NCBI GenBank assembly: GCA_027031765.1
Contig: JALVPN010000041.1
Location: forward strand, 1-32,000
DNA length: 32,000 nucleotides
From: Promethearchaeota archaeon
Lineage (GTDB): Archaea > Asgardarchaeota > Thorarchaeia > Thorarchaeales > Thorarchaeaceae
Direction of reading: 5' to 3'
Notes under the pieces: model-generated
The model's database searches: none
What the model was told of the DNA's origin: nothing
What the model saw: the letters and a program-made list of their open reading frames with translations, nothing else
Made by a program: the position numbers and the translations under genes
Shown here: positions 22,084-28,675 of the stretch, one piece after another
How positions within the stretch are numbered: position 1 is the first letter of the stretch
Layout of the letters: each line of letters starts with the position of its first letter

Positions 22084-22688
22084 GCTGCACTGTACTTGCT
22101 GATGAGCTAGCGTAGTGATGTCGGGCAGTATGCGTCCACTCAGGGAGTGCAGCAATGTTTGGGTTCACAGATGGTGTCAGCTGCTACTACATGCGAATGG
22201 AGGTCTTGTTTGGGCTGAACACCGTCCCTGCATGACCGACCGGTGGTGGTGGCACGCCGTCCATACCGTGACTACCCCCTACAGTGTGTGCAGTCGGTTC
22301 AGTACTGTGACCGGGTGGTCCTCTAGGCCGCCCGCCTCTTCTTGTCACAGGCCTCCTGTTCTCGTCAGTACCACAACACATGTTGTGGTCTTCCAGTCTT
22401 CCTCCTCACGGCTCCTGCTGGCCGCTGGACGCAGCTACGTCCGTGGAGTGTTGGGGATCTGTGATGCTGGGTGAGCACGCTATGGACTCCTCCCGACCAA
22501 TCTCTGGTCCTACCCGACTGTGAGAGTGGTCTACGTGCAGCGGGTCGTGGCTTGCCGTGGAGCGATAGTGCCGGCCCCATGACGTCGGACTCGTGATGTG
22601 ATGTAGTCCGTCCCGACGGTGGCACTTGCCGCTCGGAAAGCCTAATAAGCAGTCCTCCTGTCCTCGCCCAATGACAGGTGAACCGGTA

Positions 22689-23132
22689 ATGAGCTCAGAG
22701 GTTGTTGCTGAGGCCATGATACGGTCTCCACGTGATGGTCGTCCGCGCAGGGGTCGTGGGTTCAGCCGTGAAGAGATAAGGCGGGCAGGGCTCACGGTAC
22801 ACGAGGCACGTCGCATTGGTCTGATGGTGGATGTACGACGGAAGACCGTGTATGACGAGAACGTGGAGGCGGTCAGGCAGCTGCTCGCTGACCTGGAGAC
22901 CATGGGGCCGGGGGTCACTGCTCCAGCGTCAGACAAGGGCCGTGACGCTGCAGTCCGTGCTCTCTCGTTCCTGAAGGAGGTGACAGAGGCCGACGCCGAA
23001 GCGCTCGTTGCCGCCGGAGTCCGTTCTCTTGAAGACCTTGCCTACTGCGATATCTCTGCTGTCGTGTCCAAGACGGGTATCGACCAGGACCGTCTCACAT
23101 CGATGGTAAAGGCTGCACTGAAGAAGGTGTGA
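22689..23132 (+). CDS. rpl13e: 50S ribosomal protein eL13 fused to a C-terminal helix-hairpin-helix domain
   Basis: RRGRGFSREEIRRAGL..EARRIGLMVDVRRKTVYDENVEA is the eL13 core; ALVAAGVRSLEDLAYCDISAVVSKTGI resembles HhH/RadA-NTD. Confidence 0.85.
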   Translation: MSSEVVAEAMIRSPRDGRPRRGRGFSREEIRRAGLTVHEARRIGLMVDVRRKTVYDENVEAVRQLLADLETMGPGVTAPASDKGRDAAVRALSFLKEVTEADAEALVAAGVRSLEDLAYCDISAVVSKTGIDQDRLTSMVKAALKKV

Positions 23133-23153
23133 TGCACAGGGACATCCCAACTA

Positions 23154-23195
23154 CGTAGAGTATCCCCTGCTGTTCGTAGAGTATTCCCTGCTGTT
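23154..23195. repeat. 21-bp tandem duplication (2 copies, 1 mismatch)
   Basis: CGTAGAGTATCCCCTGCTGTT followed by CGTAGAGTATTCCCTGCTGTT. Confidence 0.9.
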
Positions 23196-23529
23196 GCACG
23201 GTGTGCGTGGCAATGGGCACTGTTCCGACCGGCCCGACACGCCATTCCAGCACAGCAGGTCAGTGTGGTCACTGTAGTGCCGACCGGCCCACTCATTGTC
23301 CCGCCTAGCGAGCTGGCACGACCAGCTGAAGATGTGGTGCCCTGCTGAACAGGTGACTGGTGGGGGCTGTCAGTGTTGTCCATTCACCTGTTTCCACCGC
23401 TCCACCGGCAACATGTGCCCTTGCCAGTCACATCCCCTTGAGCGCTCGGAGAGTTGTGCGGGAAGCTACTTGAGCCACCGAACACCACTTGTTTGCCATT
23501 CACCACTGGTACCCGTGGGACTGCTGGTG

Positions 23530-24437
23530 GTGCCGGTTGGGCCTAGAGCATGTGCTGACCAAACTCAGGTCTGACGAGTCCGTACGGGGGTATGCACTAC
23601 TGACCAGTTCCGGCCGGCCAGTCCTCTCATTCAGGCTGCCCGAGGAGGTCATGTCAAGGACACATGGCACCCTGCAGGTATTGGCGGCCTCGCTCAGGCC
23701 CGTGAATGTCATTGCTGACGAGGGGACTGCTGTTCTCGCACATCTGAACTCTGACTAGGTACTCACTGTCACATTTGATTCCAAGTTGAACCTTGGCGAG
23801 GCCCTCGAGAGAACCCCGGTTGTTGTGACCCTCCTCAGGCGGGCAGACCTCCCCGAACCCCCAGACTCAGAGGTCTCTGTGCCCACTGTTGAGATTCGGG
23901 TGGTCCACACTGCCGCCACTGTGGGCCCAACATGGTCCGCTTAGGGGCCCCTTTTGCCACGCCCCGCGTTCCAGATACGCCACGGCTGTGTGATGTCACC
24001 GGACAGACGCTACGATGAGGCAATCCGCATCGGTTACGACCTGGATGTCCAGATACGGTCATGGTTCTCAAACATGGGCCTTGACATGCTGATGTATGTT
24101 GACAGCAACAACACCCTCACATCGAGATTGCCGAAAACTTGCGCAGGATGTCGAGAGGGTGATCAATGTCCTGCAGTGGTGCTATGATAACTGGGTTGTC
24201 GGTGCTGAATGTCCTGAAGAGCAGGCGCCAGCAAAGAGGGAAATCCTTGAGATGCCCACGTACGAAGGGCACCTTGAGGACGCCAAGAAATAGCACCGGA
24301 GAGTCCTTGAACTGTGCTACGGTACGAGGACGGTCCAGGAGGTTGCCGACCATCTGGGCCTCCTCTACTTGGATGTGTTGAAGGCCATACTCCCCTATCG
24401 GGACAAGACTCTGAGAATGGTGCGTCGTACAAGATGA
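23530..24437 (+). pseudogene. Disrupted paralog of the roadblock-2xwHTH gene at 26517..27485
   Basis: By-eye collinear match along the whole length (LEHVLTKLRSDESVRGYALLTSSGRP vs LERALSKLRFDDQVIGYSLMTKAGRP; LELCYGTRTVQEVADHLG vs ISMCDGTRTPEEIAEALG); TAG at 23756, 23942, 24291; frameshifts near 23540 and two within 24116-24141. Confidence 0.88.
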
Positions 24438-24453
24438 CTGTGGAGGTCAAGTC

Positions 24454-24957
24454 GTGGGTGTGAAGGGAAAGTTGGCATGGGCACTGAAGACTGACAGGGT
24501 ATCGGAGCCGTCATTCCAGGCCATCTACCGCGAGTTCGTGAACCTGCTACTTGAGACATGCGAGAGCGTTGACGAGATCAACCGCCGACTGAAAGAGGTC
24601 GGCTTTCATGTTGGGGGGCGTATCCTCCCTTAGTATGCCGACAAGATACGGGAGCACGCAAAGGAGTTCCATGAGTCTGCGTCAACCTTGCAGCTGGCGT
24701 ACAAGGTGAACCTTGGACAGGAGTTCACGACCGTGTGGATTAGAAACGACCGAAAGACCATCAAGTTCAGCGATGAACGGTGTGTCATCTGCGAGGGAGT
24801 TGAGATTGCGGACATGCCGGGACTGCAGTACTGCAACCTTTTGAGTGGCGTGTTCCAGGCTGTCCTGGGCCTCCGGGGCTTCAAGGGCACGACGTATCAG
24901 GAGACCTGTCGGGCACTCGGCGACCCGGAGTGCATGTGGACAACCAAGTCCGAATAG
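24454..24957 (+). pseudogene. Bet3/TRAPP-like V4R gene interrupted by a single in-frame TAG (24631-24633)
   Basis: GGAGGT SD then GTG 24454; FQAIYREFVNLLLE..SVDEINRRLKEVGFHVGGRILP*Y continues in frame into the 24688..24957 ORF; paralog of 27525..27998. Confidence 0.82.
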
Positions 24958-25136
24958 ACCGCGCACCACCCACACCCGGTGCACTTGGTATGTATGTTGG
25001 ACACTGGAGTGGTCAGCCCATCCTGACCGGCCGGTCTCCGCAAAGGTAAAGAGTGGTAGTAGTCTTACCAGGCCTGCATGTGTCGGCTGTCACCTGCACA
25101 ACAATGGTCGCCGTGTGCACGCGAGAGGAGATAGAC

Positions 25137-25637
25137 ATGGGTCAAATTACCGGTGCCTTCCTTGGATTCATCACTGCATTCATTGCCTGCTTCCTGATAC
25201 TGCTCTTCGGGACGTTCGTCCCAGAGGATGTCGTGGCGTCCAGCATAGTGGACGACTTCGTCGGGCACCCCGACTTGGAACTGAAGCTTGCCATTGTTGG
25301 GACCGTCCTGTACCCACCCCACCTGGGCCAGATGTTACCGTACGGTGCGCAGCAGAGCACCGTGCTCATGGCCCTAGTGTGGGGCCTCGGGGGCCTGCTC
25401 GCCGGCCTCGTTTCTCGTGACATCGTGAAAGGGGTCTTTGCAGCAATCTTTGCCGTGGTCATCGGTGCTGTGCTGACATGGCTGATGGTCTTCATTGTCC
25501 AGACTGCCGACATCGCCGCAATCTTTGGGTCGTTGTCACTCCTGATCTTACAAGTCACTTTTGAGGGGACATTATACCCGCTAATAGCTGCAGTGATTGG
25601 TGGTCTCCTCGGGAGTGCTATCACGCGCGAGCGGTAG
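25137..25637 (+). CDS. Four-TM membrane protein of unknown function
   Basis: GAGGAG SD before ATG 25137; four hydrophobic Gly-rich segments. Confidence 0.8.
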   Translation: MGQITGAFLGFITAFIACFLILLFGTFVPEDVVASSIVDDFVGHPDLELKLAIVGTVLYPPHLGQMLPYGAQQSTVLMALVWGLGGLLAGLVSRDIVKGVFAAIFAVVIGAVLTWLMVFIVQTADIAAIFGSLSLLILQVTFEGTLYPLIAAVIGGLLGSAITRER

Positions 25638-26360
25638 TCAGTCCTGATGACCTGCACCGACAGCCCCCACACATTCCTCCCACTCGTCCTCAGCGGCTCC
25701 CATCTCCAGCTGTCGTCCGCAATATGCACAGACGAGTGGGTTCGACTTGAAGACCGCGCCGCATGTGCACACCGTTTCGATTTTCAGTGGTGGTGGTACC
25801 TGCTGTCTGCGGGTGATGGCCGTCTTCAGGGTGGCCGTCGTCATCCACCCGGGCACGGAGAGGCCAGACGCCAACATCGCAGCAACGAAGTGCAGGAACA
25901 GTGCCCAGTTCCGGGCATCTCTGTCGCCAGTCCAAAGTGTGGGGTCAAGTAGGAGGGCTGATGTCAGCGAACCAAGGAGCACAAGCCCTCCCATCCAGAC
26001 GGATGTGCGCATACAGTTGCTGCGTGATGTGGCGGGGATCCCCGCAACAGCACCCATCAGGGCCCACACAAGGGCGTACTGAATCCATGCACCAGCACTG
26101 GCTGATGTCATGCTGACCGGGTGGAGGTGCTGAGTGCCTGTCAGGAACACCCACAAGGGCCAGGACAAGCGCACTGGATACCCGGGCTCCTGGAGGTCTT
26201 TCAAGACGACCACTGCAACTGCTCCCAGTGAAACGCCAACCATGGCGCCGAGAAAGTCTCTCAAGGCCTGCCGTCTCCGCGCTTGGGCACAGTTGTAGCC
26301 CGGGGGAGTGCTCCCGGCCATCGCCGGACGTCCATCCATCAGACGGACCCGTGCCCGCAT
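25638..26360 (-). CDS. Four-TM membrane protein with C-terminal Zn ribbon
   Basis: Four hydrophobic segments, PPP linker, CTCG...CAYCG; exact start uncertain. Confidence 0.75.
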   Translation of the reverse strand: MRARVRLMDGRPAMAGSTPPGYNCAQARRRQALRDFLGAMVGVSLGAVAVVVLKDLQEPGYPVRLSWPLWVFLTGTQHLHPVSMTSASAGAWIQYALVWALMGAVAGIPATSRSNCMRTSVWMGGLVLLGSLTSALLLDPTLWTGDRDARNWALFLHFVAAMLASGLSVPGWMTTATLKTAITRRQQVPPPLKIETVCTCGAVFKSNPLVCAYCGRQLEMGAAEDEWEECVGAVGAGHQD

Positions 26361-26516
26361 GTGTGTGTCCTCTCGCTGATGCGGAACACTTAATGGTTTC
26401 TAAGGCGCCTTACAAGAATGGCTGAGTATGGAACCACAATGCTTTTCAGACCTCTAGACGACATACGAGCTTGTCCTGCAGGTCTGGACTAACAAGAGGC
26501 TGTGAGGTGGACCAGG

Positions 26517-27485
26517 GTGCCGGGTGACCTTGAAAGAGCGCTTTCGAAGTTGAGGTTTGATGACCAAGTGATTGGCTATTCGTTGATGACCAAAGCGGGG
26601 CGCCCGTTCGTGAGCTTCTCTTTCCCGGATGACCTGTTCCCCCGTGTCAAAGAGAGCATCAGCCTCTACAAGGCAGACCTGCGTCTCATGACCATTGACA
26701 CGGACAAGGGCCTCGTTGTCCTGTCACCCGTGGACAACAACTGGATCCTGACCGTGCTGTATGTGCCAGAGCTCCAGCTTGGGCTTGCCATCGCGAAGAC
26801 CAAGAACGTGCTCCGTCAGCTTGAGGGTGCCGAGCTGCCACCGCCGCCAGAAGACTTCGAGGACTCGGCCGAGGAGAACCTCCAGGTGTTGGAGCGTGTC
26901 GCAATCCAGGCTGCGTCGACATCCACAGTCACGAGCACAGTCGCGCCCCCAGCCGCCCCTGTAGAAGAGGCGGTGCCGGCAGAGAAGTCCCCTGAGGACT
27001 TTGTGGTGACTCCGAGCACGGTCCCAAAGAAGGGCCCCCAGTACTCTCTGGCCCTCTCCCTAGACTCGCCCCTCTACAATGACATGCGTGAGCGCTACCG
27101 CAACTTTGGTTTCGACGTCCTCATGCTTGTCGACGGCACGATGACCGCTGGTCAGATTGCCGAGGCGATGTTCCAGCCCAACGACCGCATCATCGAGCTA
27201 CTGAAGTGGGCTGCGTCAAAGGACATCGTTGAGGTGCCGGAGGCGGAGGCCGCAGGCCAGGCAGTTTCGGAGCCCACAGCGATAGGACGCTTCGTCAAGT
27301 GTCCAAAGTTCGAGGGCGACATCTCAAAGGTGCGGGCTGAGGACCGGCAGATAATCAGCATGTGCGACGGCACCAGGACTCCTGAGGAGATTGCAGAGGC
27401 GCTTGGAATCCCCCACGCAAAGGTAGTCCAGGCCCTTGGCCGGAACCGTCGTTATGGCCTGAAGATGATTGGCCGGGCCAAGTAA
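26517..27485 (+). CDS. Roadblock/LC7 (MglB-like) domain plus low-complexity linker plus two winged-helix domains
   Basis: N-terminal alpha-beta-beta-alpha-beta-beta-beta-alpha pattern (VIGYSLMTKAGRP...GLVVL...ILTVL...LGL); repeats LVDGTMTAGQIAEAM and MCDGTRTPEEIAEAL; GAGGTG SD before GTG 26517. Confidence 0.75.
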   Translation: MPGDLERALSKLRFDDQVIGYSLMTKAGRPFVSFSFPDDLFPRVKESISLYKADLRLMTIDTDKGLVVLSPVDNNWILTVLYVPELQLGLAIAKTKNVLRQLEGAELPPPPEDFEDSAEENLQVLERVAIQAASTSTVTSTVAPPAAPVEEAVPAEKSPEDFVVTPSTVPKKGPQYSLALSLDSPLYNDMRERYRNFGFDVLMLVDGTMTAGQIAEAMFQPNDRIIELLKWAASKDIVEVPEAEAAGQAVSEPTAIGRFVKCPKFEGDISKVRAEDRQIISMCDGTRTPEEIAEALGIPHAKVVQALGRNRRYGLKMIGRAK

Positions 27486-27524
27486 GGACGGCCAGTTCCA
27501 ACTGTTCCCAGAGGTGCACCAGTC

Positions 27525-27998
27525 ATGGCAAAGGCACAGAACCCACTTTTCCTGAGTCTGTACTCGTTCAACGTCGACAGAATCCTTGAGGAGTCCAGCA
27601 ACGTCGAGGAGGCCAATGAACGGCTCCGTACCCTCGGGAGGGAGCTGGCCCAGCAGCTCTACTTCTCTACAGACATTGAGGAGCGGAGCAAGGAGACCAT
27701 ACTTACACGTGAGGATGTCGCAAAGCTCGTGGAGGTGGTCTTCAGGGCACTCTTTGACAAGAAGCCCACCGAGATTGACCTGGAGTCGGCGCGCGGGTCA
27801 ATCAGGGTGTCCGACCGTGACTGCATATTCTGTCAGGACATTCACCTTGAGGGGGTGCGCGGGGTCGGGTACTGCGAGGTCTTCAGTGGCATCCTTGAGT
27901 CCATTCTTGAGTTCAAGGGTGTTGACTCGAAGGTCTTTGAGGAGCTCTGCAAGGCCACAGGGGCCGACTTCTGTGTGTGGAACATCCGTTTGATCTGA
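27525..27998 (+). CDS. Bet3/TRAPP-like V4R-fold protein
   Basis: LFLSLY...EEANERLRTLGREL...FRALFDKKP...YCEVFSGILESIL...LCKATGADFC; by eye this matches the Bet3 pattern (LFTLTY, VNKQLDKMG, AFKMYLG, YSNLLCGVLRGAL). Confidence 0.75.
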   Translation: MAKAQNPLFLSLYSFNVDRILEESSNVEEANERLRTLGRELAQQLYFSTDIEERSKETILTREDVAKLVEVVFRALFDKKPTEIDLESARGSIRVSDRDCIFCQDIHLEGVRGVGYCEVFSGILESILEFKGVDSKVFEELCKATGADFCVWNIRLI

Positions 27999-28120
27999 CC
28001 GGCACCCGGAGCGACACATGTTGCAGTCGCTATGAGATGGTCCGTTGTCATGTAGGCCATAGGTCAGCACAAAGCACTTAACTCACTATTCTGCCACAGG
28101 TGTAAACGGGAGAGTCCGCG

Positions 28121-28675
28121 ATGTCGAAGCAAGAAACCCTACATTGGTGGACTGGCAAGCTGAAAGAACGTGACCTGATGCGTGCGTTCTTTTCCAAGAC
28201 GTGGAACAAGATTGGCAGTCGGATTGCTGTGATGTTTCCCGACCGTGTCCGTGACCTCTACTACAGTGCAGGACGCCTTGCGGGCCTCGAGGCCCAGCGG
28301 GAGTACTTCAAGGTCGGGAAGCAGAAGCCCCCCGGCGACTTCAAGGGCATCGTTGAGTTCATCAAGATGGCCCTTGAGACCCTCATAATCCCGTTCGGTG
28401 ATGTCAAGATCACAAAGCTGTACAAGCTGTGGCTTGACGAGGAGGCAATAATCGAGATCAAGGACAACCCATACGCATCGGGATACCAGGCCGATGAGCC
28501 GTCGTGCTTCTTCCTGAAGGGCTTCATCGAGGCGGTTATGGAGTACCTGGCAGACTTCAACAGGCTCGAGTACGAGAAGATGTTGATTGTCGAGGAGACC
28601 TGCATGTCTGCAGGGGCGCCGTCTTGCACTTTCAAAATCACACTCTCGCACCCTGCACGCGGCCAGGAGCGGTAG
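28121..28675 (+). CDS. V4R-domain protein
   Basis: LYYSAGRLAG, DNPYA, PSCFFLKGFIEA, EETCMSAGAPSCTF. Confidence 0.85.
   Translation: MSKQETLHWWTGKLKERDLMRAFFSKTWNKIGSRIAVMFPDRVRDLYYSAGRLAGLEAQREYFKVGKQKPPGDFKGIVEFIKMALETLIIPFGDVKITKLYKLWLDEEAIIEIKDNPYASGYQADEPSCFFLKGFIEAVMEYLADFNRLEYEKMLIVEETCMSAGAPSCTFKITLSHPARGQER

Follow-up and report, generated by a model that had tools for sequence, protein, structure and literature searches.

A Thorarchaeota genome encodes, in a row, a roadblock protein with two winged helices (RBwH2), a Bet3-fold protein (TRAPP2) and a V4R-family protein, and we give about an even chance to the reading that the three make up a unit that is functional and probably also physical, combining a roadblock/longin-winged-helix adaptor with Bet3-fold proteins and tied to small-GTPase regulation. 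The genes lie at 26,517 to 28,675 of the window, by which we mean the whole 32,000-nucleotide stretch analysed (positions 1 to 32,000 of the forward strand of contig JALVPN010000041.1, here C41). This 47-kb contig belongs to a Thorarchaeota metagenome-assembled genome (GCA_027031765.1; 2.95 Mb, 60% G+C), and the run metadata point to a hydrothermal-vent metagenome as its source. The three genes form an operon-like unit: all are on the plus strand, RBwH2 and TRAPP2 are separated by 39 nt, and TRAPP2 and the V4R gene by 122 nt. A preliminary description of the window, made from the letters alone, had reported three co-directional genes with the first two 39 nt apart, and the coordinates of the open reading frames (ORFs) confirm this. 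We favour a GTPase-regulating unit because of the folds of the products, the orthology of TRAPP2 to a crystallised Thorarchaeota TRAPPC3 (Thor-TRAPPC3), the tight and conserved adjacency of the genes, a longin-TRAPP fusion, and the presence of GTPase genes as neighbours in two lineages.

TRAPP, Ragulator and GATOR1 are platforms of roadblock or longin domains, joined in TRAPP by Bet3-fold subunits, and their origin is an unsolved problem of eukaryogenesis. Individual parts have known Asgard homologues, of which some have been crystallised, and the components of the module described here have already been published as eukaryotic signature proteins. No description of a conserved RBwH-TRAPP operon with GTPase neighbours was found in the literature searched. 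The paper on Thor-TRAPPC3 treats that protein alone, a text search finding in it no description of the upstream RBwH partner or the V4R neighbour, and regards genome layout as little help in matching partners (Tran, Akil, Senju and Robinson 2024, Commun Biol 7:273, PMC10933270). The conserved pair names proteins to co-express and supplies a short list of candidate GTPases, thereby moving from a catalogue of homologies towards a testable complex.

Folds of the three products

TRAPP2 is orthologous to Thor-TRAPPC3, and no structural difference between them is expected. It matches over its full length the Protein Data Bank (PDB) entries 7yh2 (TRAPPC3 of Thorarchaeota AB25, E 3e-69) and 7yh3 (SMTZ1-45, E 1e-67), with which it shares its length of 157 aa and an end-to-end alignment at roughly 60-68% identity. 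The zinc-binding cysteines C100, C103, C117 and C150 are all present in TRAPP2 and are invariant among its orthologues. Homology to 7yh2 and 7yh3 assigns TRAPP2 the two-layer alpha/beta Bet3 fold, with four helices and a four-stranded sheet, and predicts a dimer formed through the N-terminal helices. The crystal structures of Thor-TRAPPC3 revealed a homodimer that is structurally closest to eukaryotic TRAPPC3/C6, has a Zn(Cys)4 site resembling the one in PoxR, and encloses internal cavities for which ligand binding was proposed (Tran et al. 2024, PMC10933270). The Pfam TRAPP model (PF04051) scores TRAPP2 just below its cut-off (26.3 bits, E 6.9e-6; cut-off 27), scores the SMTZ1-45 orthologue at 47 bits, and is found in nearly all database orthologues; on TRAPP2 it is far ahead of the V4R model (E 7e-6 vs 0.025). 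A PDB search with a profile of TRAPP2 orthologues returned the two Thorarchaeota structures, followed by ~16 eukaryotic TRAPPC3/Bet3/TRAPPC5 chains aligned over nearly their full length (E 0.004-0.4), and gave no match to MJ1460, PoxR, MopR or DmpR. By sequence, TRAPP2 sides with the Bet3-family subunits of eukaryotes and not with the V4R proteins of prokaryotes, and this was the grouping on which the preliminary description had staked its Bet3-like assignment beforehand. Its statement that TRAPP-domain proteins have been reported in Thorarchaeota is likewise sound, as the crystallised TRAPPC3 proteins (7YH2/7YH3) attest.

To predict the fold of RBwH2, AlphaFold2 was given 111 aligned orthologues and paralogues from related loci. 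The resulting model has a predicted local distance difference test (pLDDT) score of 84 overall, exceeding 90 over most of the roadblock domain, and lays the chain out as a roadblock domain (residues ~1-111), a helix (114-134), a disordered linker and two winged helices (~160-240 and 259-321). The topology of the N-terminal domain is alpha-beta-beta-alpha-beta-beta-beta-alpha, with helices at residues 3-13, 38-50 and 88-102 and strands at 18-25, 30-34, 58-61, 66-71 and 76-82. In a VIA structure comparison, this domain superposes on Roadblock3 of MK-D1 with a Z score of 13.5 and a root-mean-square deviation (rmsd) of 2.3 Å over 106 residues. Comparable Z scores are obtained with p14/LAMTOR2 (13.4), MglB (12.4; 12.4-12.5 for MglB and MglC together), Loki roadblocks (within 12-13.5) and the crystallised Thor-RB (7f8m, 12.0), which is encoded by a gene separate from RBwH2. 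The model thus gives residues 1-111 a roadblock fold. The earlier call of a roadblock protein with two winged helix-turn-helix (HTH) domains is upheld by this topology and by the closest Z score, despite the absence of a Pfam roadblock match.

Pfam recognises in RBwH2 only its C-terminal winged helices, and those weakly. The roadblock model Robl_LC7 goes unmatched among the 111 RBwH family members at E up to 0.01, and the 15 Robl_LC7 matches in this genome all lie outside RBwH2. HTH_47 is matched in 86 of the 111 family members and DUF742 in 10, and a family profile finds PqqD weakly in the PDB (E 0.55). DUF742 and PqqD are winged helices that bind proteins or peptides, the former in the conservon protein CvnC and the latter among the recognition elements of ribosomally synthesised and post-translationally modified peptides. 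A search of the ESM Atlas with RBwH returned Thorarchaeota clusters alone.

The third gene had been assigned to V4R in the preliminary description, and both its Pfam V4R match (PF02830, 39.3 bits against a cut-off of 31) and its modelled fold agree. Its AlphaFold2 model (pLDDT 78) runs through three helices, two strands, one helix and two strands, which is the full Bet3-type topology, and places the protein in the V4R family with a V4R/Bet3 fold. Foldseek matches the model to MopR, PoxR, Bet3, TRAPPC3 and MJ1460 (E 1e-6 to 1e-4), with the MopR/PoxR sensors and eukaryotic Bet3/TRAPPC3 about equal at template modelling (TM) scores of 0.6-0.68. In a profile-profile comparison, the V4R and TRAPP families align over the C-terminal 42 columns only, at 76.9% probability.

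Conservation of the gene pairing

Loci containing a TRAPP2 relative were fetched from 67 Thorarchaeota species, and gene order was read where the contig was long enough. The Thorarchaeota order is eL13, PfkB, RBwH1, TRAPP1, two membrane-protein genes (plus and minus strand), RBwH2, TRAPP2, V4R, an HVO_0163-type HTH gene and ABC ATPase/FtsX, in which RBwH1 and TRAPP1 are paralogues of RBwH2 and TRAPP2. The order of the module is kept in ~60 species, and a counterpart of the third gene is present in 64 loci. Spacing is tight, with median gaps of 24 nt between RBwH2 and TRAPP2 (range 10-36, n=61), 18 nt between RBwH1 and TRAPP1, and 68 nt between TRAPP2 and V4R. Unrelated neighbours such as eL13 and the ABC transporter are syntenic across Thorarchaeota too, so synteny within the family is, by itself, weak evidence. 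The two membrane-protein genes (25137-26360) are also conserved in position across Thorarchaeota, which suggests a membrane anchor, or possible membrane partners, for the roadblock protein. Membrane-protein genes that look similar by eye, one hydrophobic and glycine-rich and the other with a C-terminal zinc-ribbon motif, adjoin an RBwH-like gene of Hermodarchaeota (L071:2602-3731).

The preliminary description had named conservation of the gene pairing as a test of its proposal, and the pairing holds far beyond this genome, both in Thorarchaeota and in other Asgard lineages. In four other Asgard lineages, a TRAPP-like gene stands behind a roadblock- or longin-winged-helix gene. A genome of the same order (L088) has a single RBwH-TRAPP-V4R trio. 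In Atabeyarchaeia, a gene for a roadblock-linker-winged-helix protein lies directly upstream of a TRAPP1-type gene, and in Candidatus Freyarchaeum deiterrae, a roadblock/longin-linker-winged-helix gene precedes two tandem TRAPP-like genes. Borrarchaeum (L106:1744-5364) carries three tandem Ras-family GTPase genes, a longin-winged-helix gene and a TRAPP-like gene, all co-directional and immediately consecutive. A genome assigned to Jordarchaeia/Freyrarchaeum has Robl_LC7, a KaiC-like gene and TRAPP, followed by a Ras-family GTPase gene. In Hermodarchaeota, the gene upstream of the TRAPP-like gene encodes a protein of 160 aa that shares the C-terminal winged helix and has no roadblock/longin part; this pair sits between LarA-like and HMG-CoA reductase genes, and the RBwH-like gene is located elsewhere, beside two membrane-protein genes. 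Independent tandem duplications of TRAPP-like genes are found in Jordarchaeia and Freyarchaeum genomes (L092:869-1974, L095:1492-2747 and L109:3585-4835).

Identity to the TRAPP-like genes of other Asgard classes is 34-42% for TRAPP1 and 21-26% for TRAPP2, a comparison that identifies TRAPP1 as the type shared across Asgard classes and TRAPP2 as its Thorarchaeota-specific sister. TRAPP1-type proteins of all classes share a conserved N-terminal motif, MG-x-K/R-G-x-hydrophobic-A/G-W. In one Asgard lineage (L090:1492-2379, minus strand), a 296-aa protein fuses a longin-like N-terminal domain directly to a TRAPP/V4R fold and has neither the winged helix nor the MG-x-K-G N-terminal peptide. Because the fusion is without both, we infer that the winged helix may dock the N-terminal peptide of TRAPP1-type proteins. 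Another longin-TRAPP fusion was described from Heimdall (Tran et al. 2024, PMC10933270), and our search for further fusions returned only the cluster of the query itself, in a word-limited search that does not imply rarity.

Weighing a proposed GTPase-regulating unit against other functions

In a GTPase-regulating unit, RBwH2 would dimerise by way of its roadblock domain, a fold that serves MglB, Ragulator and the C-terminal domains of Rag proteins as a GTPase platform. Its winged helices would hold dimers of both Bet3/V4R-fold proteins, whose zinc-stapled hydrophobic cavities could bring in a lipid or small-molecule signal, and the regulated protein would be among the ~27 Ras-family GTPases whose genes lie elsewhere in the genome. 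We infer physical binding, and with it a stoichiometry, a GTPase target and an effect that may be GEF-like (guanine nucleotide exchange factor), as in TRAPP, or GAP-like (GTPase-activating protein), as in MglB and GATOR1. A complex prediction that paired RBwH2 (322 aa, 111-row alignment) and TRAPP2 (157 aa) reached 0.02 where the mark is 0.32, which is no verdict and is counted neither way. A second link of V4R folds with roadblock/GTPase modules exists in the same organism, in an operon on another contig (C144:2099-5004, L105) whose products are a sensor-type XylR_N+V4R protein of 245 aa, a 209-aa small GTPase of the Arf/MglA-like kind and a set of three roadblock-like proteins: the first matches Robl_LC7 clearly, the second weakly, and the third has no Pfam match.

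Several known systems resemble parts of this arrangement. The eukaryotic TRAPP core, in which Bet3/TRAPPC3, Trs31/C5 and Trs33/C6 combine with the longins Bet5/C1, Trs23/C4 and Trs20/C2, is a GEF for Rab1/Ypt1. Like it, the archaeal loci bring several Bet3-fold paralogues, in most Thorarchaeota three of them, together with proteins of the roadblock/longin superfamily; in lineages beyond Thorarchaeota a longin that weakly matches Sybindin takes the partner's place, and Ras-family genes are adjacent in two lineages. Unlike the TRAPP longins, the Thorarchaeota partner joins its roadblock domain to two winged helices. Further differences from eukaryotic TRAPP are the Zn(Cys)4 site that the Thorarchaeota Bet3-fold proteins have in place of the eukaryotic arrangement (PMC10933270) and the absence of large TRAPPII/III subunits. 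The pair may still be a direct archaeal forerunner of the TRAPP core, acting as exchange factor or other dedicated regulator of a Rab-like GTPase, and we consider this quite doubtful. A roadblock/longin dimer would then be flanked by Bet3-fold dimers, with the winged helix docking the N-terminal peptide of the Bet3 subunit, a link that would have turned covalent in the longin-TRAPP fusions. The TRAPP-core-like complex proposed in the preliminary description therefore stands in part: the Bet3 grouping, the conserved pairing, the fusion and the GTPase neighbours speak for it, and in Thorarchaeota the partner is roadblock/NPRL2-like rather than a sybindin or sedlin longin. In the actinobacterial conservon, a roadblock protein (CvnB) and a DUF742 protein (CvnC) accompany a GTPase (CvnD) and a membrane kinase (CvnA). 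The Thorarchaeota module resembles this system and MglB-MglA in combining a roadblock domain with a DUF742/HTH_47-type winged helix, in having membrane proteins nearby and in its similarity to MglB and MglC (Z 12.4-12.5). It differs from them in uniting roadblock and winged helix in one chain, in having no GTPase gene within the Thorarchaeota operon and in having a Bet3-fold protein as constant partner.

A number of observations weigh against a GTPase-regulating unit. None of the 27 Ras-family matches of this genome lies on contig C41, as the preliminary description had correctly stated for small GTPase genes in the window, and none of the 67 Thorarchaeota loci has a GTPase gene closer than 7 kb to the module. 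The canonical Robl_LC7 genes of this genome adjoin GTPase genes elsewhere, unlike RBwH, and RBwH2 itself has no match to Robl_LC7 (PF03259) at E up to 1. The end-to-end match of the longin part of the Borrarchaeum protein to Pfam Sybindin, the TRAPPC1/C4 longin family, favours the unit but is weak (E 0.028). The Thorarchaeota synteny may reflect inherited order rather than selection for linkage, and the decay of the upstream pair, which is of the pan-Asgard type, makes that pair dispensable in this genome. Finally, Thor-TRAPPC3 has been read as a ligand-binding homodimer, with no GTPase operon link in MK-D1 (Tran et al. 2024, PMC10933270).

The main rival to a GTPase-regulating unit is a ligand-sensing transcription module, in which the Bet3/V4R-fold proteins would bind a hydrophobic ligand and modulate a DNA-binding RBwH2, which might in turn control the neighbouring HVO_0163-type HTH gene and the ABC exporter of MacB/FtsX type. 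The model of the third gene is as close to the phenol sensors MopR and PoxR as to Bet3, ligand binding has been proposed for Thor-TRAPPC3 from its cavities and PoxR-like Zn(Cys)4 (PMC10933270), and the RBwH winged helices weakly match Sigma70_r3/r4, TrmB, HTH_20 and MarR. In essentially every Thorarchaeota locus the trio is followed by HTH and ABC ATPase/FtsX genes, but these neighbours are not kept outside Thorarchaeota, as the LarA-like and HMG-CoA reductase genes around the Hermodarchaeota pair illustrate. Moreover, the commonest winged-helix match is HTH_47, with some to the protein- or peptide-binding DUF742 and a weak one to PqqD, two other lineages have GTPase genes next to the pair, and a roadblock domain is unusual in transcription factors. 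We regard transcription control as unlikely, though it is to be taken seriously. That the three genes have no functional link, being neighbours through inherited Thorarchaeota gene order with products that act independently, is very unlikely. The conserved block does hold eL13, a PfkB kinase gene and an ABC transporter as well, and kin within one family are not independent observations. However, at least five further Asgard lineages have the pairing too, with differing surroundings and partner architectures, the two-gene unit has been duplicated as a unit, both kinds of domain are fused in one lineage, and gaps between RBwH2 and TRAPP2 are as short as 10-36 nt.

A GAP resembling GATOR1, rather than a GEF resembling TRAPP, would place RBwH1 and RBwH2 as a heterodimer like NPRL2/NPRL3 on a Rag- or Arf-like GTPase, with the Bet3-fold proteins as accessory sensors; this we hold to be quite unlikely. 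NPRL2/NPRL3 of GATOR1 (yeast Npr2/Npr3 of SEACIT) form a GAP for RagA/Gtr1, and the order of their domains, with a roadblock/longin-superfamily domain at the N-terminus and winged helices in the C-terminal domains, is like that of RBwH. Two diverged RBwH paralogues in most species would suit a heterodimer, and the roadblock protein MglB is a GAP, according to PDB titles. The best Foldseek matches of full-length RBwH2 are 362-402-residue chains in GATOR1, KICSTOR-GATOR1 and SEAC entries (E 2e-7 to 1e-4), which we take to be NPRL2/Npr2 from their chain length, a tentative label that weakens the match. In the same alignments, the TM score is ~0.2 and the rmsd ~19 Å; the order of domains agrees but their packing differs, and so weak a resemblance weighs also against the GTPase-regulating unit. 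Neither RBwH2 nor any of the 111 family members matches Pfam NPR2/NPR3, and sequence searches of the PDB with RBwH, as single sequence and as family profile, gave nothing useful and no match to NPRL2/NPRL3. The N-terminal domain of RBwH2 also has roadblock rather than longin topology, and the G-x-P in its beta1-beta2 loop is a general feature of roadblock domains. A Bet3-fold neighbour is foreign to GATOR1, no DEPDC5-like partner was seen, though no search was aimed at one, and this genome works without RBwH1. A family with NPRL2 domain organisation has been reported 'in most Thor MAGs' (Liu et al., 10.1101/2020.10.19.343400), and RBwH is probably that family.

The decayed upstream pair and the surrounding locus

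Upstream of the trio, RBwH1 and TRAPP1 (Table 1) are a pair of pseudogenes, and this lineage is losing them. RBwH1 is interrupted by in-frame TAG codons at 23756, 23942 and 24291, its frame shifts at least once between 24118 and 24138, and tblastn with intact RBwH1 orthologues yields two high-scoring segment pairs in two frames. TRAPP1 is interrupted by one in-frame TAG (24631-24633), which its PF04051 match (37.3 bits) spans, and retains 61-69% identity to intact orthologues. All four nonsense codons of the pair are TAG, one standing for a conserved Trp (TGG) and one for Lys (AAG). Both products have the lowest identity to orthologues of the species compared (RBwH1 39.7% vs typical 53.1%; TRAPP1 61.4% vs 74.0%), and RBwH2 and the V4R gene are typical in their divergence. 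Elsewhere, RBwH1 is intact in 49 of 53 other species loci and TRAPP1 in 50 of 52. The preliminary description had held that the pairing occurs twice here: the upstream paralogous pair is recognisable, but it is broken by the four TAG codons and the frameshift, and since it has decayed, the duplication adds no independent support within the window.

Among the species compared, TRAPP2 has diverged most in this genome: its median identity is 61.8%, where 69.7% is typical and no other species falls below 63.1%. One possibility is that this compensates for the lost TRAPP1.

Recoding of TAG was rejected as an explanation of the broken frames. Across the genome, 39% of long frames close with TAG, frame pairs joined by TAG match the proportion of TAG terminators, and TRAPP1 itself terminates in TAG where its orthologues end; the frameshift and the excess divergence also argue against it. 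An assembly error is unlikely, as the Logan assembly of run X1 is letter-identical over 23400-24492 and 24568-25000, an agreement that checks the assembler rather than an independent population, the sample probably being the same.

Table 1. Coordinates of the genes and pseudogenes discussed, as positions in the window
Feature	Coordinates	Strand	Basis and description
RBwH2 (gene 1)	26517..27485	+	ORF, 322 aa; roadblock plus two winged helices, NPRL2-like layout
TRAPP2 (gene 2)	27525..27998	+	ORF, 157 aa; orthologue of crystallised Thorarchaeota TRAPPC3/Bet3-fold protein
V4R gene (gene 3)	28121..28675	+	ORF, 184 aa; predicted third Bet3/V4R-fold protein of the locus
RBwH1 pseudogene	23537..24437	+	Frame translation, tblastn; RBwH2 paralogue
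TRAPP1 with one in-frame TAG	24454..24957	+	TRAPP2 paralogue; pan-Asgard TRAPP-like type, conserved MG-x-K-G N-terminus
Multi-pass membrane protein	25137..25637	+	ORF, Pfam; weakly DUF5518-like, glycine-zipper C-terminus; between both modules
Membrane protein with C-terminal CxxC...CxxC zinc ribbon	25638..26360	-	ORF; divergent from RBwH2
eL13 gene	22626..23132		C-terminal extension

RBwH2 has an alternative start at 26502 (327 aa), and 26517 was chosen because it fits the N-terminus of the orthologue consensus. The PfkB sugar kinase gene that elsewhere lies between eL13 and RBwH1 (L068:1953-3053) has no match in 23000-25100, and the gap between eL13 and RBwH1 (23133-23536) is ~400 nt here against ~1.2 kb in other Thorarchaeota. 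The C-terminal extension of eL13 is shared with the SMTZ1-45 orthologue (L068:1468-1917).

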